From an uncultured candidatus Brocadiaceae bacterium (GTDB taxonomy: Bacteria > Planctomycetota > Brocadiia > SM23-32), in NCBI GenBank assembly GCA_964572825.1, contig CAZNGS010000009.1, positions 8,413 to 72,412 of the forward strand: DNA of 64,000 bases. Direction: 5' to 3'. Made by a program: the position numbers and the translations under genes. Shown piece by piece: positions 1-46,311 of this stretch (its first letter is position 1; each line of letters opens with the position of its first letter). The notes below the pieces were generated by a model. That model had not been told where the DNA came from. It saw only the letters and a program-made list of their open reading frames with translations, and did no database searches.

Positions 1-819
1 TGGGGGCAGTCCTACTACGAGACGGACGGATTCTACCGCCCCAAGGCCAGGATCATCGACGGCCGGTCGCTCTGGTTCGCCTGGAAGCCCTCCCAGGCGA
101 GCGCCGTGGAGCTGGTGCACGCCGCCGACGAAGGCATAGAGCGCTTCTCGCTCGAAGTGGGACGCGGCGCGAAGGGGGTGGACCTGTGGCCGAAGCTGAG
201 CCTGGTCCGATCCGGCGGGGCGGACCTGCTCGTCTATTACACGGGCTACGCGCGGCACCGGAAGCGGTACATGCCCGAAGACGCCGAGGCCGTCCTCAGC
301 CGGTATCCCTACAAGCACAGGCCCTGGGAGGAGCTGCCCCAGCGCACCCGGAACAGCTTCATCGGGCAGGCCCGGCGGTGCGGCGTCTGGACGGACGAGC
401 TGTTCCCCCCGCGCAGCCCCGCTGCCGTCAGTGTCTTCGACGCTCGACTCGGCAGGGTCCAATGGACCTACAATGTCTCTGAGCACCATCCCAGCCTGCC
501 GGCCAACGGTTTCTGGACCTACATCGACCGCTCCCACATGGTGGTGGCGGGGCGATGGGCCTACGTCGGCTGGGTGGATACCGCGGGACAGGAGGCTGTG
601 CTGCGCCTGGTGGCGCTGGACGTCACCGCCGATGCGCCGGAGCCCGTCGAGCGGACCGTTCCGCTGGGGTTCACGTCCAAGGGCCACGAGCGCAGCACGC
701 TGATGGACCTGGCTGCCGTGGACGGGCGCCTTTACGCCTACGTGCTGCAGGCGCAGAACTTCTGGATTCGCGACCCCCGCTGGAAGGCCCAGCACGTGGT
801 GGCCATCGGCACGCACTGA
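1..819 (+). CDS. hypothetical protein, 3' fragment; the reading frame is open from position 1, so the gene continues upstream of the window
   Basis: Frame 1 is open from nt 1 (WGQSYYETDGFYRPKARIIDG...) to the stop at 817-819. The ORF track shows only the part from an internal GTG at 106. GC-rich third codon positions. No family recognised. Confidence 0.45.
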   Translation, partial: WGQSYYETDGFYRPKARIIDGRSLWFAWKPSQASAVELVHAADEGIERFSLEVGRGAKGVDLWPKLSLVRSGGADLLVYYTGYARHRKRYMPEDAEAVLSRYPYKHRPWEELPQRTRNSFIGQARRCGVWTDELFPPRSPAAVSVFDARLGRVQWTYNVSEHHPSLPANGFWTYIDRSHMVVAGRWAYVGWVDTAGQEAVLRLVALDVTADAPEPVERTVPLGFTSKGHERSTLMDLAAVDGRLYAYVLQAQNFWIRDPRWKAQHVVAIGTH

Positions 820-826
820 GCCCCCG

Positions 827-1804
827 TCAGTCCGCCGCGAAGTAGTCGCGCAGCGCCTCGATGGCCATGCGGCCGCACCGCAGGAACATCCGGTGGGTGG
901 TGCCCGCCACGTGGGGCGTCATCACCACGTTGTCCAGCTCCCGCAGCACGTCGTCCTCGGGCGGCGGTTCGGGCTCATAAACGTCCAGGTAAGCGCGGAA
1001 CCGCGCCTTCTGCATCTCGGCGCGGAAGGCCTCGTTGTCCAGCAGGGCAGCCCGCGCGGAGTTGATCAGCAGCGCGCCGTCCTTTATCAGGGACAGCTCC
1101 CGCGCTCCGATCATGGCCGTGGTTTCCTCGGTCACGGGCGCGTGGAGCGAGACCACGTCCGCCGTGCGCAGCAGCGTGTGGAGGTCGGTAAGCTCTACCC
1201 CCAGCTCAGCCGCCTCGGACTCGTCCAGGTAGGGATCGCAGGCGAGAACGCGCACGTCGAACGCCCGCAGGTAGCGCACGACCCACCGGCCGACCCGGCC
1301 CAGGGCGACCAGCCCCACGGTGGACCCGTTGAGCTGGCCGGCCACGCCGCGCCATCCCGGCCATTTGACGCCCGACTTCATCTTACGATCGAACAGGTCG
1401 AACCTCCGCAGACCGGCGATGGCCGCCCCCAGCGTCCACTCCGCCACGGCTTGGTTGCAGGCGTCCGAGGCGTCTATGACCTCCACCCCTGCCGCGCGCC
1501 ATTCCGGGGCAACGTCATTGTGCTGGCCCCACCAGTGCGAGACTGCGGCCACCTTCACGGTGCCGGCCGCCTGCAGCGCCTCGCGCGAGACCTCCGCCGC
1601 GTGGGAGCCGTTCAAAGAGAGGATGGCGTCCGCGCCGCTGAGGTGTTCGACCATCTCGTCCTGGGACAGCTCCTCCCGCCCGTCTGCGTTGTCCCGTACC
1701 TCGGCGAAGGAGCGCAGCAACTGCTCGTTCTCCTCGTCCACGTAATACTCTCGGGGGCACCACTCAACGCGGTGGATGTAAACAAGAGGCCTCCGTGCGT
1801 TCAT
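827..1804 (-). CDS. D-isomer-specific 2-hydroxyacid dehydrogenase family, NAD-binding
   Basis: Translation MNARRPLVYIHRVEW...GLVALGRVGRWVVRYLRAFDVRVLACD...HAPVTEETTAMI...TPHVAGTT carries the D-2-hydroxyacid dehydrogenase signature. The internal ATG at 1804 gives about 325 aa. The 411 aa ORF-track version adds a non-homologous N-terminal extension. Confidence 0.75.
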   Translation of the reverse strand: MNARRPLVYIHRVEWCPREYYVDEENEQLLRSFAEVRDNADGREELSQDEMVEHLSGADAILSLNGSHAAEVSREALQAAGTVKVAAVSHWWGQHNDVAPEWRAAGVEVIDASDACNQAVAEWTLGAAIAGLRRFDLFDRKMKSGVKWPGWRGVAGQLNGSTVGLVALGRVGRWVVRYLRAFDVRVLACDPYLDESEAAELGVELTDLHTLLRTADVVSLHAPVTEETTAMIGARELSLIKDGALLINSARAALLDNEAFRAEMQKARFRAYLDVYEPEPPPEDDVLRELDNVVMTPHVAGTTHRMFLRCGRMAIEALRDYFAAD

Positions 1805-1913
1805 GTAGGCCCGGCCTCCATTGTCTGAAGGGAAACAGCGCCGCGGACCGGATGTCCAGCGTCGCCGTGGCATTGTGTAGTTTGCAGTGCGCGGGCGCAA
1901 GTCCGCGTGGTCT

Positions 1914-1942
1914 TTGAAAACTTCCGGCATCCGTCCTACAAT
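1914..1942 (+). promoter_or_regulatory. sigma-70-like promoter TTGAAA-N17-TACAAT upstream of the methyltransferase/sulfatase operon
   Basis: TTGAAA at 1914-1919, a 17 nt spacer and TACAAT at 1937-1942, about 35 nt upstream of the ATG at 1977. A GGAGAG RBS sits at 1963-1968. Confidence 0.4.
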
Positions 1943-1976
1943 CCGCCGTTCGGCCCCCCACTGGAGAGCAACTTCA

Positions 1977-3065
1977 ATGGCCTGCGCCTGGAAACAGAAC
2001 TGGCAGGAGACGCGAGAGCACTTCGTCGATTGGTGGAACCAGGAAGGGCTGGTGCTGGGCACCTGGGGGCACGTGCGCGGCGGTGAGCCCCGCGAGGACG
2101 TCGAGAATCCGGGCTGGCTGAAGGACGTGACGGAGCGTTACACCAACGCGGACTGGCGCGTGGCCTGGAACCACTATGACCTGGCCTGCGGCCGATTCCC
2201 CGCCGACACGCTGCCGATCGCCGACGTGGGGCTCGGCCCGGGAACCCTCGCCCCCTACCTGGGCAGCGAGCCGGAGTTCGTGGAGGGCACCGTCTGGTAC
2301 CATCCCCTCGCGGCGGATGACCCGGAGCCCGAGAAGTGGCCGCCGCTTCGCTTCGATCCGGACAACGAATGGTGGCGGCTGACCCGGGGGATGCTCCGAC
2401 GGCAGGTTGAGCTGGCCGATGGGCGGTATCTGGTCGGATGCCCCGACCTGATCGAGAACATCGACACGCTGGCCTCCCTGCGCGGCACGCAGCCGATGCT
2501 GATGGACATGGTGGTCCGCCCGGAATGGGTGGACCGGAAGATGGAAGAGATAACCTCCGTCTGGATCGAGGCTTACGACCGTATCTACGAGATCATAAAG
2601 CTGGAGGACGGCAGCGGCGCGTTCTGGGCTTTCATGATATGGGGCCCCGGGAAAACGGCCAAGCTCCAGTGCGACGCCAGCGCCATGATCTCCCCCGAGA
2701 TGTTCGAGCGCTTCATCGTGCCCGGGCTGACCGAGCAGTGCCGCCACGTGGACTACTCCATGTTCCACCTGGACGGCCACCAGTGCATGCCCCACCTGGA
2801 CCTGCTGCTGGGCATCGAGGAGCTGGACGCCATCGAGTGGACACCCGACCCACAGGTCCCGCCCGGCGGGGATCCGGAGTGGCACGACTTGTACGGCCGC
2901 ATACTCGATGCCGGCAAGTCCGTGCAGGCCATCGTGCCCCGGACGAACCGGATCGTGCCGTTGCTGGACGCCGTGGGGGGGAAGGGGATGTACCTGCTGA
3001 CGCAGTTCGAAAGCGAGTCCGCAGCCGAAAACCTGATGCGCGCCGTCGAACCTTACCGGAAGTAG
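1977..3065 (+). CDS. uroporphyrinogen decarboxylase (URO-D) / MtaA-CmuA-like methyltransferase family protein
   Basis: MACAWKQNWQETREHFVDWWN...FHLDGHQCMPHLD gives a URO-D-fold methyltransferase-like protein. The start is at the ATG 1977, preceded by GGAGAG. The ORF-track ORF begins earlier at 1887. Confidence 0.55.
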   Translation: MACAWKQNWQETREHFVDWWNQEGLVLGTWGHVRGGEPREDVENPGWLKDVTERYTNADWRVAWNHYDLACGRFPADTLPIADVGLGPGTLAPYLGSEPEFVEGTVWYHPLAADDPEPEKWPPLRFDPDNEWWRLTRGMLRRQVELADGRYLVGCPDLIENIDTLASLRGTQPMLMDMVVRPEWVDRKMEEITSVWIEAYDRIYEIIKLEDGSGAFWAFMIWGPGKTAKLQCDASAMISPEMFERFIVPGLTEQCRHVDYSMFHLDGHQCMPHLDLLLGIEELDAIEWTPDPQVPPGGDPEWHDLYGRILDAGKSVQAIVPRTNRIVPLLDAVGGKGMYLLTQFESESAAENLMRAVEPYRK

Positions 3066-3079
3066 AAGGAGAGACCGAC

Positions 3080-4306
3080 ATGCCCGCAGAACAGGCAAGA
3101 AAGCCGAACATCGTGCTGGTGTATATGGACGACATGGGTTACGGCGACATGGGCTGCTTTGGCTCGTCGCTGATCAGGACCCCCGTGATGGACTCGATCG
3201 CCGGGCGGGGGGTGAAGTTCACCCGCATGTACGCCGCCGCCGCCATCTGCTCGCCCTCCCGGGCGGGACTCCTGACCGGCCGATACGCCCAGAGGCTGGA
3301 CGTCGAACGGGTGCTGTTCCCCGGCGACACAAAGGGAATTACGGATCAGGAGAAAACCTTCGGCGCCTACCTGCAGGATGCCGGCTACGCCACCTGCATG
3401 CTGGGCAAGTGGCACCTGGGCTGCCAGCCCCAGCACAATCCCGTGCGGCACGGGTTCGATCACTACTTCGGCCTGCTGTACAGCAACGATATGGACCCGC
3501 TGCACCTCTACCGGAACGAGGAGGCCATCGAGACCGAGGTGGACCAGGCCACGCTCACGCGCCGATATACGGACGAGGCCATCGGCTTCATCGAACAGCA
3601 CGCGGACGAGCCGTTCTGCGTTTACCTGGCCCACACCATGCCACACATCCCGCTGCACGTGGAACCCGATTTCCGGGGTCGCTCGGAGGGCGGCACCTAC
3701 GGCGACACCATCGAGTGCATCGACTACCACCTGGGCCGCCTGCTGGAGAAACTGGAGGAGCTAGGTCTGACCGAGGACACGCTGGTGACCGTCACCAGCG
3801 ACAACGGTCCCTGGTTCGAGGGCAGCACGGGCGGGCTGCGGGGCAGGAAGTTCGACAACTACGAGGGCGGCATCCGCATGCCCTTCGTGGCGCAGTGGCC
3901 GGGCACCATCCCCGCTGAGGCCGTCTGCGACGATCCCGCCAGCCAGATGGACATGCTGCCGACGTTCCTGTATCTGGCCGGCCTCACGCCCGACGGGCCG
4001 CAGCTGGACGGCATCAACATCTGGCCGGCCTTCGTGGGCGAGAGGTATCCTGAACGCGAGGCGCTCTACCACTACTTCAAGTACACGCTGACCGCCGTCA
4101 CCTGCGGCCGGTGGAAGCTGCACTTCTGCGACCGGGGGGGCAGCACCAAAGAGATGCCCCAGCTCTACAACATCGAGCGGGACCCGCAGGAGAATTACAA
4201 CCTGGCGAACCTGCAACCCGAGGTGGTCGAGCGCCTGAGCCGGCTGGCCGCGAAGTTCGACGAGGAGATCCAGGCCGCCCGCCCCGAGCAAGAGGGTGAC
4301 GAGTAG
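3080..4306 (+). CDS. sulfatase (formylglycine-dependent), no signal peptide
   Basis: The N-terminus MPAEQARKPNIVLVYMDDMGYGDMGCFG and the CSPSR active-site motif (AAICSPSRAGLLTGRY) are present. The ATG at 3080 has a GGAGAG RBS. The 622 aa ORF-track version is an upstream extension. Confidence 0.85.
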   Translation: MPAEQARKPNIVLVYMDDMGYGDMGCFGSSLIRTPVMDSIAGRGVKFTRMYAAAAICSPSRAGLLTGRYAQRLDVERVLFPGDTKGITDQEKTFGAYLQDAGYATCMLGKWHLGCQPQHNPVRHGFDHYFGLLYSNDMDPLHLYRNEEAIETEVDQATLTRRYTDEAIGFIEQHADEPFCVYLAHTMPHIPLHVEPDFRGRSEGGTYGDTIECIDYHLGRLLEKLEELGLTEDTLVTVTSDNGPWFEGSTGGLRGRKFDNYEGGIRMPFVAQWPGTIPAEAVCDDPASQMDMLPTFLYLAGLTPDGPQLDGINIWPAFVGERYPEREALYHYFKYTLTAVTCGRWKLHFCDRGGSTKEMPQLYNIERDPQENYNLANLQPEVVERLSRLAAKFDEEIQAARPEQEGDE

Positions 4307-5682: not shown

Positions 5683-6692
5683 CGCAGAAGCGCGGCCGTT
5701 TGGCGGCGCCAGGCCAGCGCCGTCTCCGCGCGGGCCAGCGCGATGGGGTTGTGGTCGTCTGTGATGGTGACCGCGCCCGGTCGGTCGGTTTCCAGCCGGC
5801 GCCGCGAGAGTTCGTAGCTGAGCCGATCCACGCCCACCGACGGCTGCCAGCTCTGCCAGAGAGGGAGGAGCTGCATGGGGCGCCGAAAGGCGAACACGAT
5901 GATGACCTGCACCGCCGATGCGTCGTTCGTCGTCCGGTAGGCCCGCACCATGTTCCGCCCGAACACATCCCCGAGGGTCCGGAAAAGCGAATCGGTCACG
6001 AAATCCCCCGTGGGCCGGCCGATATAGTTGATGGCCAGTATGCCGTCCTCGGTGAGCCGCTGTTTTGTCAGTTCGAAAAACTCGCGCGTGATCAGGTGGA
6101 AGGGGATTACGTCCGAGTTGTAGGCGTCCAGCACGACGAAGTCCACCGGCTCTTCATGCCGCCGCAGATACTGCCGGCCATCCTGGATGACCGCCCGGCC
6201 GCGGTAGGGGCCGGGGGGGCGGTGCGCACGCCTTTGCTCCTCGCCCGGCACGCCCACCTCCCGGTTTGGGAAGCGCTCGAGGTCCACCCGATGGAGCGTG
6301 CCGTCGGGGTAGAAGATATCGCCGCGATAGCCGAAATATGCCTTCGCCAGTTCGGCGACCTTGACGTCAATCTCCACGGCGGTCCAATCGATGTCGTAGA
6401 ACTCCATCACCCGGGGGAACATGCCACCCGCCAGCACCACGAGGCTGTAGAGCATCCACGCCCGCGGGAGCCGGTCCGCCAGTCGGCCTCCGACCGCGTA
6501 ACCCGCCGCCAGGCAGGTGAGCGTGACGCTCAGCAGCGCCGCCCACACGTAGAGGCTGCTGCCGTAGCAGGTGCCCACCACGCGCGTGCCCAGGATCTCC
6601 AGCGCCAGCACCGAAGCGCCCGTCACGGTCACCAGGCCGAGCAGGTAGATGCGCCCCGGCTCCCGGCGCTGCTCCCCGGGCCTTTCACTCAT
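5679..6692 (-). CDS. spermidine synthase-like (polyamine aminopropyltransferase family) protein with N-terminal transmembrane helices
   Basis: The N-terminus has hydrophobic helices (LLGLVTVTGASVLALEILG, LYVWAALLSVTLTCLAAGYAVG). A SpeE-like core follows (VEIDVKVAELAKAYFG...DFVVLDAYNSDVIPFHLITREFFE...DGILAINY). The start is taken at the internal ATG 6692 (MSERPGEQ...). Confidence 0.6.
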   Translation of the reverse strand: MSERPGEQRREPGRIYLLGLVTVTGASVLALEILGTRVVGTCYGSSLYVWAALLSVTLTCLAAGYAVGGRLADRLPRAWMLYSLVVLAGGMFPRVMEFYDIDWTAVEIDVKVAELAKAYFGYRGDIFYPDGTLHRVDLERFPNREVGVPGEEQRRAHRPPGPYRGRAVIQDGRQYLRRHEEPVDFVVLDAYNSDVIPFHLITREFFELTKQRLTEDGILAINYIGRPTGDFVTDSLFRTLGDVFGRNMVRAYRTTNDASAVQVIIVFAFRRPMQLLPLWQSWQPSVGVDRLSYELSRRRLETDRPGAVTITDDHNPIALARAETALAWRRQTAALLR

Positions 6693-15062: not shown

Positions 15063-15104
15063 CCTCCGCTCCCAGGTGGGACAGGGCAATCCAGCAGGCC
15101 GCTC

Positions 15105-16538
15105 TCAGGTTTTGTAATCTTCTTTGCAAAGGTCGTGCCGTTTCATCTTGTCGTAGAGGGCCCTGGGGCTCAGGCCGGCCCGCTTCGCCGTCTGTCCTAC
15201 GCGCCCCCCGGTGGCCGCCAGCAGCCCCTCGATGTAGCCCTTTTCCAGGTCGGCCAGGAACCGCTCTCGGACGCGGCGCCACGGCATGCGGAGCCATTCC
15301 TCGGGCAGGTCACCGACGATCGGACCGCCGGGTGCAGAGCCTGGCTCGTCCCCCACTGGGCCAGCTCCACCCCGCACGGTTTCCGGCAGATCGGCCGGGC
15401 CGATCATGCCGCCGTCGCAGAGCAAGAGCGCCCGTTCGATGACGTTAATCAGTTCGCGCACGTTTCCCGGCCAGGAGTATTGTATCAGGGCATCGAGGGC
15501 CTGGTCCGTGATCCCTTCCGCCGCACAGCCCACGCGTGGCTGCAGGTAGTCCATGTAGCTCTCGACGAGCACGGGTATGTCCTCCCGGCGCTCCCGGAGG
15601 GGCGGAATGGTGAGCGTGACGACGCTGAGGCGATAGTAGAGGTCCCGTCTGAAGCGCCCTTCGCTGACCTCACTCTCCAGGTCGCGATTGCTGGCGGCCA
15701 TCAGTCGCACGTCCACCGGTATGGTTCTTTCGCCGCCTACGGGCTGGACTTGACGGTCCTGAAGCACGCGCAGCAGTTTGACCTGGACGTGGTAGGGCAA
15801 CTCGCCGATTTCGTCCAGGAACACCGTGCCCCGGTGAGCCAACTCAAACCAGCCCCGGCGAGTCCTGGCCGCCCCCGTAAAGGCTCCTCTCTCGTGGCCG
15901 AAAAGCTCGCTCTCCAGCAGCGACTCGGGCAGGGCTGCGCAGTTGATGGCGACGAACGGGCCCTCGGATCGCGGCCCCTCGCCATGAATGGCCCTGGCGA
16001 GCCGTTCCTTGCCCACGCCGGTCTCGCCCAGGATGAGCAGCGAGACATCGCTGCGCACCACTCGCCGTGCGAGCCCCATGAACACCTGCATGCAGGGGCT
16101 CTCCGAGACGAAGTCGGACAGGCGCGGCGTGGACATATCCCCATCGGCCAGCAGTGTGCTGCGGGCGGCCGCCGCCCGCCGCGCCAGCAGGGCCTGCAGA
16201 ACCTCGCCGAAGACCTCGGCCGACAGCCCTTCGTGGAGGACCGCCAGGCAGCCGGACGCCGTCAGGCAGGCCCGGTTGACCGGGTCGTCACTGGCCGAGA
16301 TGACGATCACGCCCGGGGGGTCCGGCAACTCTCCAAGGGCAGCGATCTTCTGCGCCAGTGGTCCGCGCACGGCGCCCTCGCTGATCACAAGCATGTCCGC
16401 CGTCTTGCGAACGACCCGGTCCCACAGGCCGCTCCCGGTGGCCTCGATTTCCAGCAGGATGTCCGGCTTGTTCAGCAGCCCGCGCAACTGCCGCCGGAGG
16501 GGTGCGGAACTGACGGCCAGAACTACCCGCGTCAGCAT
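15105..16538 (-). CDS. sigma-54-dependent transcriptional activator (NtrC family) with a degenerate N-terminal receiver-like domain
   Basis: AAA+ sigma-54 interaction motifs [14 protein letters not shown] and ESELFGHE are present. A C-terminal Fis-type HTH follows. The N-terminal domain lacks the acidic Asp-Asp pair and reads VVLAVSS. Confidence 0.8.
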
Positions 16539-16707
16539 TCGAGCATGCTCCCCCCAAGAGTCCCGATAAGTACTTTTACTGCCGATTTGACCGGAAGTCA
16601 AGATTCTGATTCCCTATCGACCAACGTTCCGGCGTCTCCGGGTTTTGTTCTTCGCAAAGCTTTCGTACAAAATCACTTGCACAGAATCAGCCCCTGGAAT
16701 GCGGCAA

Positions 16708-16723
16708 TGGCACACCATCTGCT
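16708..16723 (+). promoter_or_regulatory. sigma-54 (-24/-12) promoter TGGCAC-N7-GC
   Basis: TGGCACaccatctGCt has GG at 16709-10 and GC at 16721-22, an exact 12 nt offset. This matches the TGGCAC-N5-TTGC consensus except for T to C at -14. It lies about 78 nt upstream of the small ORF ATG. Confidence 0.45.
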
Positions 16724-16800
16724 TTTCACCTGACGGGAGATAGAAGCGGGATGGTCTCGCTCCCCTGGCGGATTCCGTAGCAGAATGGGAGGCAGGAAAG

Positions 16801-16896
16801 ATGGCAAAGGCAAAGGGCAAAGCAGCCAAGCCGGCCAAGAAGGCCCAGGGCAAGGCAAGAGAGAAGAGCAAGGGCCGAAAGAGCCCCAAGCGTTAG
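16801..16896 (+). CDS. small ORF encoding a 31-aa Lys/Ala-rich basic peptide (MAKAKGKAAKPAKKAQGKAREKSKGRKSPKR)
   Basis: The ATG sits 6 nt after a GGGAGGCAGGAAAG Shine-Dalgarno. G/C dominates third codon positions. A clean TAG stop is followed immediately by a strong hairpin. It is too short (below about 60 aa) to appear in the ORF track. Confidence 0.35.
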   Translation: MAKAKGKAAKPAKKAQGKAREKSKGRKSPKR

Positions 16897-16909
16897 CGGG
16901 GCGCCCGTT

Positions 16910-16937
16910 GGGCGGACGTGTCTTGCCGCGTCCGCCC
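16910..16937. terminator. strong GC hairpin between convergent genes, possibly a bidirectional terminator
   Basis: GGGCGGACG-tgtcttgccg-CGTCCGCCC is a 9 bp perfect stem. It lies right after the sORF stop and just downstream of the stop of the minus-strand EBP gene (16941). No U-run follows. Confidence 0.4.
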
Positions 16938-16940
16938 CTC

Positions 16941-18347
16941 CTATTCCTCGGCCAGCTTGCGCACTATGTCGTCGCGCTCCACGTCGCACTTGCGCATCAG
17001 GCGGTGGAAGCTCTCCCGTTCGATGCCGGCGTGTTCGGCCGCGCGGGTGACGTTGCCCCCGTACTGCTTGAGCACGTCGATCAGATACTGCCTCTGGCAG
17101 CTCAGGCTGGCCTTGTCCATGGCCTTGCGGTAGGGAAGATTCACCAGGGCGGCCATGTCGGCGGGGGGGCGCTGCTCGTCCGATTCCAGAAACGGGAACA
17201 GGGAGGGGGTGATGAGGTAGTCGTCGCACAGCACCACGGCCCGCTCGATGGCGTTTTGGAGCTCGCGGACGTTGCCGGGCCAGTGGTAGTTCATCAGCTT
17301 CTCCATGGCGGCCGTGGACAGCTCGTAACGATCGGCCTCCTCGCCCGCGAACAGGCGCAGGAAGTGGTCCACCAACAGGGGGATGTCCCGGGGTCGCTCC
17401 CGCAGCGGGGGCAGGCGGATGGGGAATACGTTCAACCGATAGTAGAGGTCCTCGCGGAATCTGTCCTCCTCCATGGCCTTCTGCAGGTCCCGGTTGGTGG
17501 AGGCGATGATGCGCACGTCCACGGGGATGTCCTCGGTGTCGCCCACGCGTCGGATCTCGCGCTCCTGAATGGCGCGATTGATCTTGACCTGCAGGTCCGC
17601 CTCCAGCTCGGTAATCTCGTCGAGGAAAAGCGACCCCCCGTCGGCCTCCATGAACAGGCCCCGTTTGTCCTTGGAGGCGCCGCTGAAAGCGCCCCGCACG
17701 TGGCCGAACAGCTCGCTCTCGATCAGCTCTTTGGGCATGGCCCCGCAGTTGATGGCCACGAAGCGGCGCCGCGCCCGATCGCTGGCGGAGTGGATGGCCC
17801 GGGCGAACAGCTCCTTGCCGGTGCCGCTCTCCCCGGTCAGCAGGACAGTTGTGTCGGCCTCGGCCGCCTTGCGGGCCAGCTCGAAGGCATCCTTGATGGC
17901 CTCGCTCTCGCCGATGATATTGGGGAATCCGTATTTCTCCTGCACCTGTTCCTTGAGTATCTGGGTTTCCTCGCGGAGCTGCTTGCGTTCGAGCGCTTTT
18001 TCCAGGGCTATTTTCAGCTCGTCCGGCTCGAACGGCTTGGTCAGGTAGTTGTAGGCGCCGGCCTTGACCGCTTCCACGGCCTGGCTGACGGTGGCGAAAG
18101 CCGTCATGAGGATCACCTCGGTCTGGGGCGCCCTGGCCTTCACCTGCCGCAGCAACTCCATCCCGTCCATCCCCGGCATGCGGATGTCGCTGAGCATCAC
18201 GTCCACCGGCTGCCGGTCGAGCTGATCCAGGGCCCGGTCTGCCGAGCTGAACGTGCTTACCTCGTAGTCTCGTGAGAGCAACTGGGAGAGCATCTTCAGC
18301 ATGCTCTCCTTGTCGTCCACCACGAATATGCGCGCTTTCGCACCCAT
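16941..18347 (-). CDS. sigma-54-dependent two-component response regulator (NtrC/AtoC family)
   Basis: A canonical receiver (IFVVDDKESM...DVMLSDIRMPGMDG) is followed by the AAA+ sigma-54 domain (GESGTGKE, GAFSGA). A C-terminal HTH is present. Confidence 0.85.
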   Translation of the reverse strand: MGAKARIFVVDDKESMLKMLSQLLSRDYEVSTFSSADRALDQLDRQPVDVMLSDIRMPGMDGMELLRQVKARAPQTEVILMTAFATVSQAVEAVKAGAYNYLTKPFEPDELKIALEKALERKQLREETQILKEQVQEKYGFPNIIGESEAIKDAFELARKAAEADTTVLLTGESGTGKELFARAIHSASDRARRRFVAINCGAMPKELIESELFGHVRGAFSGASKDKRGLFMEADGGSLFLDEITELEADLQVKINRAIQEREIRRVGDTEDIPVDVRIIASTNRDLQKAMEEDRFREDLYYRLNVFPIRLPPLRERPRDIPLLVDHFLRLFAGEEADRYELSTAAMEKLMNYHWPGNVRELQNAIERAVVLCDDYLITPSLFPFLESDEQRPPADMAALVNLPYRKAMDKASLSCQRQYLIDVLKQYGGNVTRAAEHAGIERESFHRLMRKCDVERDDIVRKLAEE

Positions 18348-38982: not shown

Positions 38983-39280
38983 GCCCTATTTTTGCTTTTC
39001 CGAAGATTTTTGTTTGGACGGCGTTAGAGCGGCTTCCCGTGCGGCCAACGGGCCTGGCCTAAACGGTTGCGAAGGACTCCGTTATGCCCCGGCCCGGGGG
39101 GCGCCGATCGTCCGGGCGCGCGAACGATTTTCAGTCCGCCCGGGGCCGGTTCTCGACCGAGAAAAAGGAATCAGCCCCCCGCCGAACGCACCGACGACGG
39201 TTGCAGCCGGGGCTCGCCCCGGCGACAATAGTGGCAGAGGCGCCCCCGGGGCGGTCAGGCACGGGAAAGGAGACCGATTC

Positions 39281-40252
39281 ATGGAACAGCATGGCAGCCG
39301 GGGCCCGAGGACCGGGCCGGGGGGAGACTTCGACCCGTTCTTCCCCTGCAAGGACAACCTGCCCGGCGTGGTGGACCGGTTGCTTCAGCAGCTCGACGAA
39401 CGGGAGACCGTGCAGCACGTCTGCCGCTATCCCCTGCCGAGTGAGAAGACCGTCATCCGCATCCTCAATCTTCTGGCCGAGGCGCTGTTCCCGGGCTACT
39501 TCAGCCAGAAGGGGCTGAGCCGGGCGAACCTCGCCTTCCACATCGGGGAGACCATCGGCAACGCTTACGACCTGCTGGCCAACGAGATCACCCGCTGCAC
39601 CCTGCACGCCCGGCACGACTCGGCTCGGTCCGAGCATGTCGAGTGCCAGCGGGAGGGGGAACGGCAGGCCTTCGCGCTCCTTGAGAAACTCCCCGACCTG
39701 CTCGACATCCTGGACGACGACGTGCGTGCCGCCTACGAGGGCGACCCCGCCGCCACGGGCTACGACGAGGCCATCTTCTGCTACCCTGGTTTCCGCGCGG
39801 TCATGATCTACCGCATCGCGCACGAGCTGCACGCACGGGGCGTGCAGTGGCTCCCCCGCATCATGACCGAATACGCCCACCGCCTCACGGGCATCGACAT
39901 CCATCCCGGCGCGGCGATCGGCCGCCGCTTCTTCATCGACCACGGCACCGGGGTGGTCATCGGGGAGACCAGCGAGATCGGCGACAACGTGCGCATGTAC
40001 CAGGGCGTGACGCTTGGGGGTTACCGCTTCAAGACCGACGAGGAGGGCAACCTGCTGCGCGGCTACAAGCGGCATCCCACCATCGAGGACGACGTGATCA
40101 TCTACGCCAACGCCAGCATCCTGGGCCCCATCACGGTGGGCGCCGGCTCGGTCATCGGGGCCAATGTCTTCCTCACGCACTCGGTGGACGCGGGCACCCG
40201 GGTGAGCATCGAGAAGCCCGCGCACCGCATCCGCCGGCGCGAGAGCGAGTAA
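39281..40252 (+). CDS. cysE: serine O-acetyltransferase
   Basis: An N-terminal SATase helical domain and a hexapeptide-repeat C-terminus (GIDIHPGAAIGRRFFIDHGTGVVIGETSEIGDNV) are present. AAAGGAG precedes the ATG at 39281. Confidence 0.85.
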   Translation: MEQHGSRGPRTGPGGDFDPFFPCKDNLPGVVDRLLQQLDERETVQHVCRYPLPSEKTVIRILNLLAEALFPGYFSQKGLSRANLAFHIGETIGNAYDLLANEITRCTLHARHDSARSEHVECQREGERQAFALLEKLPDLLDILDDDVRAAYEGDPAATGYDEAIFCYPGFRAVMIYRIAHELHARGVQWLPRIMTEYAHRLTGIDIHPGAAIGRRFFIDHGTGVVIGETSEIGDNVRMYQGVTLGGYRFKTDEEGNLLRGYKRHPTIEDDVIIYANASILGPITVGAGSVIGANVFLTHSVDAGTRVSIEKPAHRIRRRESE

Positions 40253-41816: not shown

Positions 41817-43274
41817 TCAATACTCTTTGCGCTGGCGCGAGGACGGTATCTCCAGGATCTTGCGATACTTGGAGACGGTCCGCCGTGCGATGTCGATGCC
41901 CTGCTTGCCGAGTTCGGCGGCGAGTTGCTCGTCGGACAGGGGGTCGCTCTTATCCTCGTTCTCGATAACGTGCAGGAGTTTCTGCCGGACGACCTCCCAG
42001 GACTCCATCTCCCCGTCGTCCTTCTCCAAACCGCCGGTGAAGAAATGCTTCAGCGCGAAGATGCCCTGAGGGGTCTGAACGTATTTGTCCGCGATGGCCC
42101 GGCTGACCGTGGAGATGTGGACGCCGACCTTGTCGGCGATCTCCTGCATCTTCAGCGGCTTCAGGTGCATGGGGCCCTTTTCGAAGAACTCCCGCTGTTC
42201 GTCGACGATGGCGCTGGCGATGTTGTAGATGGTGCTGCGTCGCTGCTGGATGGCGTCCAGAAGCCACTTGGCGCTCTGGAGTTTCTCCTTCAGGTATTCC
42301 CGGGTTTTCTCGTCCAGGTCTTCCTGCTGGAGGCGGCGGGCATAGTAGCCACAGATGCGCAGGGGAGGCAGGGCTTCCTCCTCCAGCACGACCCGGAACT
42401 CTCCCTCCACCAGCTCCACGCGCAGATCGGGCATGACGTGAGGGGCGGCTTCCTCGGCGAACAGGGCGCCAGGGATGGGGTTGAGCCTGGCGATCTTCTC
42501 GACCGCCTCCTTGAGCTGTTCGATGGAGCAGTTCATCGCCTTCGCCACGCGGGGATAGCGGTTCTTGGCAATGTCCTCGAAATGCCGCTCCACGAGTCGT
42601 GTCAGGAACTGGTAATCGGGGGCACGGTCATCGAGCTGGATGACCAGGCATTCCTGGATGTCGCGGGCGCCGACGCCGGGCGGCTCCAGCCTCTGCACGA
42701 CGCGCAGCGCCTCCTCGGCCTGCTCTACGCTGTAGTCCCCTTCGGCGGACTGGACGATCTCCTCCAGGGAGCCGTCCAGGTATCCCCGCCAGTCCAGATT
42801 GGCGACGATATGCTCGCACAGGGCGCGCAGCGCGTCGTCCAGCTCCACGTAGGCCAGTTGCCGGAGCAGGTGTTCCTCCAGCGATATTCCGGGGGCGGGG
42901 GAGTTTTCCAGGGCCGCCAGCTTGGGATCTTTCTCGCCGTCGGAGGAGGAAGACCTGCGCGGCCCGTAGGTGTCGTATTCCCCCGGCTGGATCAGGTCTT
43001 CCAGCGCGTCGTAATCCTCGTTCTCCAGCGGTTCTTCTTCGGGTTCCTCTTCGGCCGTTTCAGCGGCAGGCTCTTCTGCCGCCGCTTCCGGACCCTCCTG
43101 GGTCTGCTCCTGTTCGGTGCTGATTTCCAGCAGCGGATTCTCCAGCAGTTCCTGGTCGATGCGCCCCCTCAACTCCATCAGCGGGAGCTGGAGTATCTCG
43201 ATGGATTGGATAATCTGAGGCGCCAGCTTGAGGCGCATCTCCTGGCGCGCTTGCAGGCTGGCTTCCAGTCTCAT
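41817..43274 (-). CDS. rpoN: RNA polymerase sigma-54 factor
   Basis: Region I reads MRLEASLQARQEMRLKLAPQIIQSIEILQLPLMEL. The C-terminal RpoN box reads ARRTVSKYRKILEIPSSRQRK. The ATG at 43274 is preferred. An in-frame GTG at 43313 with AGGAG is an alternative start. Confidence 0.9.
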   Translation of the reverse strand: MRLEASLQARQEMRLKLAPQIIQSIEILQLPLMELRGRIDQELLENPLLEISTEQEQTQEGPEAAAEEPAAETAEEEPEEEPLENEDYDALEDLIQPGEYDTYGPRRSSSSDGEKDPKLAALENSPAPGISLEEHLLRQLAYVELDDALRALCEHIVANLDWRGYLDGSLEEIVQSAEGDYSVEQAEEALRVVQRLEPPGVGARDIQECLVIQLDDRAPDYQFLTRLVERHFEDIAKNRYPRVAKAMNCSIEQLKEAVEKIARLNPIPGALFAEEAAPHVMPDLRVELVEGEFRVVLEEEALPPLRICGYYARRLQQEDLDEKTREYLKEKLQSAKWLLDAIQQRRSTIYNIASAIVDEQREFFEKGPMHLKPLKMQEIADKVGVHISTVSRAIADKYVQTPQGIFALKHFFTGGLEKDDGEMESWEVVRQKLLHVIENEDKSDPLSDEQLAAELGKQGIDIARRTVSKYRKILEIPSSRQRKEY

Positions 43275-43287
43275 GTAACTCACCCGC

Positions 43288-43911
43288 TCACTTCTGAAGT
43301 TCGCTCGATTCACCCATCTCCTGCCGCCCCGCCAGGGCCTCGCCCAGCACGGCGGAGTTGGCGTAGTCGAGCTGGCTGCCCGCCGGGATGCCCCTGGCCA
43401 GGCGGGTCACCTTCACCGGCAGGTCGGCCAGCGCCTCGCGCACGTACAGCACGGTGGCTTCGCCCTCCATGTCGGCGTTGCATGCCAGGATTAGCTCTTC
43501 CACGCCTCCGGCGGCCACGCGCTCCACCAGGCTGTCCACGGTCAGGTCGTCGGGCTCCATGCCCTCCAGGGGGGCCAGGCGACCGCAGAGCACGTGGTAG
43601 AGGCCGCGGTAATCGGTCTGCTCCATCGCCACCACGTCCTTCGATTCCTCCACCACGCAGATCGTGGACCGGTCTCGCCGGGGGTCGCCGCAGATGGCGC
43701 AGGGATCGCTCTCGGAGAAGTGGTGGCAGGTCGAACACTGCGTGACCCTGTCCTTGACCTCGCGGATGGCGTCGGCCAGCGCCAGCGCCTCGTCGCGGGG
43801 CAGACGCAACACGTGATAGGCCAGCCGCTCGGCGGTCTTCTCCCCGACGCCGGGCATGTGCCCGAGCAACTCCATGAGTCGCTCCAGCGATTCGGTGTAA
43901 CCTCTGGCCAC
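43288..43911 (-). CDS. recR: recombination protein RecR
   Basis: The HhH reads ELLGHMPGVGEKTAERLAYHVL. The C4 zinc finger is CSTCHHFSESDPCAIC. A Toprim follows. The GTG start at 43911 has GGGAGG...AAAGGA upstream. Confidence 0.9.
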   Translation of the reverse strand: MARGYTESLERLMELLGHMPGVGEKTAERLAYHVLRLPRDEALALADAIREVKDRVTQCSTCHHFSESDPCAICGDPRRDRSTICVVEESKDVVAMEQTDYRGLYHVLCGRLAPLEGMEPDDLTVDSLVERVAAGGVEELILACNADMEGEATVLYVREALADLPVKVTRLARGIPAGSQLDYANSAVLGEALAGRQEMGESSELQK

Positions 43912-45842: not shown

Positions 45843-45924
45843 CGGCGCTCTCTCGGTCAGGGAAGTTGGGCCGTGCGCTCCGATCGGCCCTGCCTTCCCG
45901 GGCAGCAACCCCCGAGCGACTCGG

Positions 45925-46025
45925 GGCAAGCAACCCCACGGCAGTCCGGGGTACTGCTTATGGCTGCTGGCTTCCGCCCCTGACCAGGTTCACAGCCGCC
46001 CGGCTCCATGGGACCCACCCGTCAA
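45925..46025 (-). ncRNA. ffs: signal recognition particle RNA (small bacterial 4.5S type), ends approximate
   Basis: The minus strand reads ...CCCAUGGAGCCGGGCGGCUGUGAACCUGGUCAGGGGCGGAAGCCAGCAGCCAUAAGCAGUACCCCGGACUGCCGUGGG... It contains the domain IV signature GUCAGG-GGC-GGAA-GCC-AGCAGC with a GGAA tetraloop. Flanking complementary arms pair CCCAUGG/CCGUGGG and CCGGG/CCCGG. It sits immediately upstream of dnaX, the conserved genomic position. Confidence 0.6.
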
Positions 46026-46311
46026 TGACGCCCGGGCAGTCCTGTACCACGGGGAGGCAAACAAGCCTCACGAAGTGGTCAGCCCTGCTGGAGCGGTTTG
46101 CAGGTTACAGGGCACCGCTAGCGCCCCGCTTAGCACGGCCCGCGTCTCGTCGGAATCTTACATCCGTCCGGTGCACGGTGGGCCATCCGGTAAGCTATCA
46201 CAGCCGCCCTCCACGCGCAACCGAAACCGCCCCCGGCCACCTTCCATTTGACCCGGCCGCCCGAGATGCGTATGCTGTTCGACCATCCGATTTTGTGGCG
46301 GGGAATATAGC

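Follow-up and report, generated by a model that had tools for sequence, protein, structure and literature searches.

A sigma-54 activator gene and a divergent gene for a lysine-rich small protein: a probable two-gene module of a Planctomycetota lineage

Among the sigma-54 activator modules of Escherichia coli are pspF/pspA and NtrC at glnAp1/glnAp2, and the pspF/pspA type of layout, with an activator gene and its sigma-54 target transcribed divergently, is already known from textbooks. The same layout appears in a 64,000-nucleotide stretch of DNA (the window) from an uncultured candidatus Brocadiaceae bacterium (contig CAZNGS010000009.1 of assembly GCA_964572825.1, positions 8,413 to 72,412). 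Here a spacer of 402 bp (16539-16940) separates two minus-strand genes for enhancer-binding proteins (EBPs), EBP1 (15105-16538) and EBP2 (16941-18347), and carries on its plus strand a sigma-54 promoter followed by a 31-codon open reading frame (ORF) for a very basic peptide. An earlier, sequence-only reading of this DNA had drawn attention to the arrangement, and all of the sequence features that it listed are present in the letters. The elements of the unit are present, conserved and linked to EBP1, and we consider it probable, taking the whole reading together, that EBP1 and the small ORF make up a self-contained two-gene module of a Planctomycetota lineage, which its nearest relatives place in the class Brocadiia.

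To see what is conserved around the activator, we compared loci carrying relatives of EBP1. More than 120 full-length relatives were found at 53-77% identity, those with a named source being mostly labelled Planctomycetota, and about ten small-ORF loci were sampled; the contexts examined included two loci that came from a metagenome scan with EBP1. That scan and a genome-collection scan with EBP2 were swamped by generic AAA+ patterns and returned two and three useful loci respectively. EBP1 orthologues lie on ten independent Planctomycetota contigs (52-77% identity), each with a divergent unit upstream that consists of a sigma-54 promoter, an ORF of 24-57 codons and a GC-rich hairpin after the stop. 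This recurrence in ten loci bears out the earlier proposal of an activator divergent from its sigma-54 target. A GGAGG stands roughly 6-9 nt before the ATG in nine of the ten loci (L086 has only 'agaag'), the ORF begins with MA and is rich in Lys, Ala and Gly in eight (with MAK in six), and the peptide ends in KR in nine and in PKR in eight, L084 ending in PKG. Flanking genes vary from locus to locus, and the conserved unit is therefore EBP1 plus the small ORF alone.

Arranged by the identity of the neighbouring EBP1 to that of the window, the peptides are MAKAKGKGGKSAAKSQSKGKKKSKGQKSPKG (L084, 77%), MAKAKAKPKKPAAKKPAAKKAKGKAKR (L082/L083, 66%), MAKAKGKARKAQQKKAAEKGKGQKSPKR (L085, 64%), MAGKGKKKTGAKAASKPKAPKKPKR (L166, 62%), MAGKGKKAARSKGKAAARKPKGQETPKR (L168, 61%), MAKAKGKGKSKAAAKPKGKQAPKR (L167, 60%) and MARNKTMQKPKTKNTRRRVACKAGVQGLPKR (L170, 59%), followed at 52% by a P/G/Q/S/K-rich ORF of 57 amino acids (aa) that ends in PPKR (L086, 2550-2830). 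What is conserved across them is the net charge, the MA(K) start and a PKR at the C-terminus; the middle is variable. A further peptide of 31 aa, P0124, was recovered by a peptide-only profile on a contig of 2.3 kb (L171), where the N-terminus of an EBP1 orthologue (a 39-aa fragment), the palindrome described below and the promoter lie upstream of the peptide ORF; since the peptide alone led to EBP1 in this case, the linkage of the two holds from both directions. As a control, a scan for Lys-rich ORFs of 15-70 codons across about 165 mostly unrelated activator loci returned the EBP1-orthologue loci alone. The sequence-only reading had held that interruption of the ORF in relatives would speak against a gene; the ORF is intact in all eight sampled loci with an EBP1 at least 59% identical (the EBP1 of L171 being the 39-aa fragment), with mostly synonymous substitutions.

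Two of these loci have peculiarities of their own. In L084 a frameshift (at about 6200-6400) precedes the helix-turn-helix (HTH) of the EBP1 orthologue, whose called length is 435 aa, and the HTH is readable in another frame past the called stop, which is either an assembly error or the mark of a decaying gene; the small ORF beside it is intact, yet is the one that ends in PKG rather than PKR. L170 holds a second Lys-rich mini-ORF, MGKKKACEKNAPKEKSKKCCKK (3474-3542, minus strand), which has an AAGGAGG site of its own some 95 nt beyond the first small ORF and sits inside a called gene of 46 aa.

The promoter of the window, TGGCACaccatCTGCT (that is, TGGCACACCATCTGCT), lies at 16708-16723 on the plus strand with GG at 16709-10 and GC at 16721-22, one mismatch from TGGCAC-N5-TTGCW and with exact GG/GC spacing, and transcription is predicted to start near 16733-16735. 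It had been described earlier as a near-consensus -24/-12 element whose absence from relatives would count against it; it is kept in all ten loci in the form GGCA(C/T)-N5-N(T/C)GC, the -12 GC falling 67-89 nt upstream of the ATG. In a 7-locus alignment GGCA and TGC are invariant columns, and the DNA around them can hardly be aligned (columns 57% identical on average). The background frequency of a loose sigma-54 motif, taken from 2.6 Mb of unrelated activator loci, is 1.2e-4 per nt per strand, or about 0.003 matches expected per 23-nt band, and for this reason the placement of the motif within a 23-nt positional band in ten of ten loci cannot be chance.

The machinery that such a promoter requires, sigma-54 and an EBP with a GAFTGA loop, is encoded in the window. 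The organism possesses sigma-54, because rpoN is present at 41817-43313 on the minus strand, downstream of the spacer as the sequence-only reading had it, with the Pfam domains Sigma54_AID, Sigma54_CBD and Sigma54_DBD. The same reading had taken both genes that flank the spacer for EBPs, and this is supported by Pfam (Sigma54_activat at E 6e-69 and 7e-70, with AAA_lid_14 and HTH_8 in both) and by inspection of motifs, which found GAFTGA at residue 218 and the Walker A motif GETGVGK in EBP1, and a GAFSGA loop in EBP2.

The small ORF itself, MAKAKGKAAKPAKKAQGKAREKSKGRKSPKR, runs from an ATG at 16801 to a TAG stop at 16896 on the plus strand, 8 nt behind the Shine-Dalgarno sequence GGGAGG (16787-16792, plus strand). 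The strong Shine-Dalgarno sequence, the Lys/Ala-rich ORF of 31 codons and its GC-rich third positions had all been recognized from the letters, and a hand count gives G or C at the third position of 23 of the 31 codons. The accompanying claim that the ORF would escape ORF callers did not hold, in that it is already called as a gene in public assemblies, those of NCBI and Logan. The open frame was discarded as coding evidence, all six frames being open, and we looked instead at how the sequence changes between loci. The second codon is always Ala, by way of GCA, GCG, GCC and GCT, the terminal Arg is written as CGT, CGC, CGG and AGG, and the penultimate Lys as AAG and AAA. By the Nei-Gojobori method, the proportions of synonymous (pS) and nonsynonymous (pN) differences are 0.62 and 0.16 between the window and L084, 0.32 and 0.05 between L085 and L171, and 0.75 and 0.19 between the window and L085. 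When pN/pS was computed in all six frames for two pairs, the ORF frame had the lowest value in both (0.26 and 0.16); the ratio was about 0.9 or more in nine of the ten comparisons in other frames, the tenth being an antisense frame at 0.25 with very few changes. Differences at codon positions 1, 2 and 3 number 6, 6 and 12 in one pair and 2, 1 and 6 in the other. These samples are tiny but all indicators agree, and by this pattern of substitution the small ORF is shown to be under protein-level purifying selection; on the comparative evidence we regard it as a real, unnamed small-protein gene.

Conservation of this kind also bears on the simplest alternatives, that a chance ORF follows a chance motif, that the ORF encodes a leader peptide or attenuator, or that it encodes the precursor of a modified or secreted peptide. 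Within the window the frequency of the motif is at chance and open frames are uninformative in GC-rich DNA, as a chance origin would have it, but ten loci share the whole unit, and these are not near-identical copies (EBP1 identity 52-77%, intergenic mean column identity 57%). An attenuator would have nothing to attenuate, because the gene downstream, convergent in the window, is a different one in each locus, and a hairpin follows each stop. Against a precursor, no conserved modifying enzyme or exporter neighbours the ORF, and inspection of the peptide revealed no signal peptide and no leader/core pattern. Taken together, we regard these possibilities as extremely improbable.

The gene product as predicted from the window is a peptide of 3.3 kDa and pI 11.8, with 11 Lys, 3 Arg and 1 Glu. 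Inspection found neither a hydrophobic segment nor Cys in it, and it is expected to be disordered. Sequence searches of Pfam, NCBIfam and the PDB with the peptides gave no match at E up to 10, a 7-sequence peptide profile gave just three matches at E up to 10 among 5.8 billion proteins, and a profile search of 1.84 billion representative proteins likewise gave three. Because each profile search yielded so few matches, the peptide family cannot be enumerated by sequence statistics.

The transcript is predicted to be a monocistronic mRNA of about 200 nt, since a hairpin follows each stop, the next gene in the window is convergent, and flanking genes differ between loci. Its leader contains a stem-loop of 7 bp, AGCGGGA-tgg-TCTCGCT (16745-16761, plus strand), at about +11 to +27 of the predicted transcript, which was found as an RNAalifold consensus. 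In eight sequences 96% of its cells are paired, compared with 34-59% in slid controls; three of the seven pairs show compensatory changes, and the covariation score was reached by none of 500 shuffles. In L170 and L086 the hairpins at about this position of the leader are different ones. We suggest that this 5' hairpin may stabilize or regulate the mRNA. At the other end, a GC-rich hairpin, GGGCGGACGTG/CGCGTCCGCCC, lies at 16910-16937 between the convergent small ORF and EBP2; the sequence-only reading had reported a perfect 9 bp hairpin after the stop, and these nine perfect pairs become 11 with an extension, around a 6-nt loop. A strong hairpin (-19 to -42 kcal/mol) begins 1-42 nt after the stop at each of the orthologous loci. 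The hairpin of the window likely terminates both the small ORF and EBP2, though no T-run follows, for want of which a consensus terminator scan did not call it.

A short transcript with a covarying 5' stem-loop and a terminal hairpin, in DNA where every frame is open anyway, is also what would be expected if the product were a regulatory small RNA, the ORF being incidental or the transcript having a dual role. There is a precedent for this in GlmY and GlmZ, sigma-54-dependent small RNAs under the activator GlrR, which the unit resembles in its short terminator-bounded transcript, its sigma-54 promoter and its dedicated activator. What sets it apart from them is a conserved ORF that has a strong ribosome-binding site and shows the substitutions of a coding sequence. 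The nucleotides diverge everywhere except in the hairpin and the ribosome-binding site, but the peptide keeps its start, its composition and its PKR end; changes at third positions prevail (12 of 24 and 6 of 9 differences), the ORF frame has the lowest pN/pS, and the distance from GGAGG to ATG is conserved. Nor did an Rfam family match: the covariance models gave nothing at gathering score, and within 16540-16945 only chance-level matches (E 0.87 or worse). We consider a small RNA an improbable explanation of the locus, and return to the transcript as the mRNA of a small protein.

Upstream of the promoter, the alignment places the best-conserved block of the spacer 30-70 nt from the start codon of EBP1. 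On the EBP1 strand this block reads TTGACW-17-TAWAAG/T in nine loci, and in the window it occupies 16573-16601 (minus strand), with a -35 element TTGACT at 16596-16601, a 17-nt spacer and a -10-like TAAAAG at 16573-16578; from this arrangement we infer that it is a sigma-70-like promoter for EBP1. Inside the spacer of this putative promoter lies a palindrome, GCCGAT-ttg-ACCGGA (16581-16595), whose family consensus is TCCGAT-N3-ATCGGA. The palindrome is conserved in nine small-ORF loci and in L172, where it stays with the activator despite a different target gene (see below). In the nine loci that a regular expression caught, 107-142 bp (118-123 bp in most) separate its centre from the -24 GG downstream, the distance being about 121 bp in the window by coordinates. 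This is a usual distance for an enhancer (about 80-150 bp from the promoter), and the palindrome is unique in the window, where 0.09 occurrences are expected by chance. These features make it a candidate operator for EBP1, which could act both as an enhancer for the sigma-54 promoter and as an auto-operator for EBP1 itself. The enhancer candidate put forward previously, the inverted pair GATTCTGATTC/CAGAATCAG, is not conserved in relatives and was set aside, the TCCGAT-N3-ATCGGA palindrome being the better candidate. A perfect WATCAANNNNTTR was seen on inspection between the enhancer candidate and the promoter in L166 only, where an integration host factor (IHF) site is not established. Between the palindrome and the sigma-54 promoter of the window there is also a small hairpin with a T-run, TCCGGCGTCTCCGGG TTTTGTTCTT (16628-16652, plus strand), which is the sole terminator-like call in the region (1.2 expected by chance) and is not obviously conserved in the other loci.

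EBP1 combines a receiver-like N-terminal domain that lacks the phospho-acceptor Asp with AAA+ and HTH_8 domains. Its N-terminal 140 residues have no Pfam match (none to Response_reg at E 1e-3 or better), and they align weakly to the receiver of EBP2 (hhalign E 3e-4, probability 40%). All ten orthologues have S, E or G where the phospho-acceptor would stand, and the DD pair is missing from most of them, such that EBP1 lacks the acidic pocket with phospho-Asp of an NtrC-type receiver; it also falls below every equivalog cut-off in NCBIfam. Control of EBP1 by phosphorylation is for these reasons improbable, and the flanks that were surveyed contained no gene called as a kinase.

An activator without a phospho-acceptor, and with no kinase gene called nearby, needs another input, and since activator and peptide are the sole conserved pair amid variable surroundings, the peptide might be a feedback partner of EBP1 in the manner of PspA and PspF rather than a general binder of polyanions, its basic tail binding the receiver-like domain or competing for DNA and so setting the output of the activator. 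A low-complexity peptide with a variable middle would, however, be unusual as a specific protein interface, and the relatives in L169 and L172, which have the same receiver-like domain, do without the peptide gene. We give such a feedback role only a slim chance.

The comparison with L169 and L172 also delimits the system that we prefer, in which the peptide is an output of EBP1. EBP2, at 16941-18347 on the minus strand, is a response-regulator type of sigma-54 activator with a normal receiver domain (Pfam Response_reg, E 1e-31), convergent with the small ORF and outside the conserved module. The metagenome-assembled genomes that carry its nearest relatives (73-78% identity) are labelled Candidatus Brocadiia or Brocadiaceae (Planctomycetota). 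No small ORF is present beside the EBP2 orthologues in L002-L004, where other genes follow EBP2, which means that EBP2 does not count among the conserved partners; in L084 it is found one gene away. The ORF is thus sandwiched between two activators in the window, as had been noted from the letters, but the presence of EBP2 is incidental and EBP1 is the sole constant partner. At 47% EBP1 identity (L087) the layout is unrelated. The peptide is not a universal target of the EBP1 family, because the promoters of L169 and L172 drive other genes, and by comparison of these loci the peptide gene appears to be the target within one EBP1 subclade rather than in the whole family.

Joining these elements, we propose the following course of events. 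EBP1 would be transcribed from its own sigma-70-like promoter and would bind the palindrome at 16581-16595, about 120 bp upstream of the -24/-12 promoter, which would serve as enhancer and probably also as auto-operator. Active EBP1 would then open the sigma-54 promoter, for which it is the presumed activator, to yield the short monocistronic mRNA of about 200 nt, composed in order of the 5' stem-loop, the strong ribosome-binding site, the 31-codon ORF and the GC hairpin. Translation would produce the 3.3-kDa, very basic Lys/Ala/Gly-rich peptide that ends in SPKR.

A number of observations weigh against this reading or restrict it. The loci sampled are only about ten of the more than 120 EBP1 orthologues. 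Matches to the promoter motif in the window are at chance frequency (21 with at most two mismatches compared with 26 expected; three with at most one mismatch) and, in this DNA of 66% GC, all six frames are stop-free across the small ORF, so that the significance of promoter and ORF comes from conservation alone. The pN/pS values are calculated from 28-31 low-complexity codons, in which a constraint on composition could mimic selection. In L169 and L172 (EBP1 54-55% identity) the divergent sigma-54 promoter is kept and other genes are driven, namely formylglutamate amidohydrolase (FGase) and split RimK-like genes in the first (2899-3830) and an operon of B12-radical-SAM, Usp and phosphoglucomutase in the second (1-3830). 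A strict sigma-70 scan missed the EBP1 promoter block in the window, whose -10 element is non-canonical and ends in G, and a single copy of the palindrome was seen; activators often use two or more sites. Finally, the biochemical role of the peptide is read from its composition alone, there being no Pfam, NCBIfam or PDB match.

As to that role, the composition of the peptide suggests, tentatively and with somewhat less than even confidence, that it binds a cellular polyanion electrostatically (DNA or the nucleoid, rRNA or the ribosome, or polyphosphate) under a stress or nutrient condition sensed by EBP1. Planctomycetota have long been noted for condensed nucleoids. A bolder and more doubtful version is that the peptide, at 24-31 aa, is a stand-alone inducible polycation that condenses the nucleoid, the ribosome or polyphosphate, placed under a private sigma-54 activator that senses without phosphorylation. 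If that were true, no smaller dedicated nucleoid-, ribosome- or polyphosphate-condensing factor would be known in bacteria, and the locus would represent a protamine-like or H1-like stress response carried out by one micro-protein.

Other features of the window were noted in passing. A second sigma-54-like element, CGGCACGACCTTTGCA (15125-15140, minus strand), lies within the last codons of EBP1 (..KRHDLCKE..), 36 nt upstream of an operon that starts at 15089 and encodes a PIG-L deacetylase, a GT4 glycosyltransferase and a GH100-MGH1-like hydrolase. L082 has the same motif (6400-6413) and the same downstream operon, and where the operon is missing, the EBP1 orthologue has Arg, His or Ser instead of the Cys, together with a poorer -12 element. 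The element may be an internal promoter that places this sugar/compatible-solute-like operon in the same regulon. Another one-mismatch sigma-54 match, TGGCACTCGACATGCT (39633-39648, minus strand), falls within or near an ORF at 39131-40225 (minus strand) that has no Pfam match. A full-length large-type bacterial signal recognition particle (SRP) RNA is located at 45871-46138 on the minus strand (Rfam RF01854, 140 bits).

A search of full-text literature found nothing directly relevant on a sigma-54-dependent Lys-rich small protein or on sigma-54 activators of Planctomycetes, and the locus offers a first handle on sigma-54 regulation in Planctomycetota. It also adds a well-supported member to the poorly charted micro-proteins of bacteria, one that is genetically testable because its on-switch, EBP1 together with rpoN, is clearly defined. 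More generally, ORFs much shorter than the customary cut-offs can be validated by comparison between loci, even in GC-rich DNA, where an open frame is uninformative.

Among basic proteins, the peptide finds its nearest analogies in H1-like proteins and in the smallest basic proteins of the ribosome. Hc2, of the Chlamydia pair Hc1/Hc2, is a DNA-binding H1-like protein (PMC2848022), and AlgP of Pseudomonas is an H1-like protein that organizes polyphosphate granules (PMC9239181). The peptide shares with Hc1/Hc2, AlgP and the tails of actinobacterial HU a Lys/Ala/Pro-rich composition, and that of L082 contains KKPAAKKPAAKK, which is like the KPAA repeats of AlgP. The histone-H1-like character named in the sequence-only reading is thus a likeness of composition only and no sign of homology; homology to such a family was not detected in Pfam, NCBIfam or the PDB, no hidden Markov model of an Hc2, AlgP or histone-H1-like family matching the peptide. 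Its S/T-P-K-R end resembles SPKK, a minor-groove motif. Unlike Hc1/Hc2, AlgP and the HU tails, which have 125 to more than 300 aa and folded domains or long repeat arrays, the peptide is free-standing and of 24-31 aa. In size (24-45 aa) and extreme charge it resembles the tiny basic proteins that associate with the ribosome, namely bTHX, bS22, bL37 and SRA of E. coli, some of which are induced by stress or in stationary phase. These are, in contrast, Arg/Lys-rich with specific conserved residues, and the peptide matches no ribosome chain in the PDB; to our knowledge none of them is sigma-54-dependent.

With respect to regulation, the locus stands close to the classical modules. As for PspF and NtrC, the candidate site about 120 bp upstream of the -24 element overlaps the activator's own sigma-70-type promoter, an overlap which, by analogy, suggests auto-repression combined with activation. 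PspF has no receiver-like domain and the receiver of NtrC is phosphorylatable, whereas EBP1 has a receiver-like domain without a phospho-acceptor. Unlike that of pspF/pspA, moreover, the target here is a single ORF of 24-31 codons and not an operon of folded proteins, and it is this that makes the system unusual: the sole conserved target of the EBP1 clade is a polycationic peptide of 24-31 aa without family assignment.

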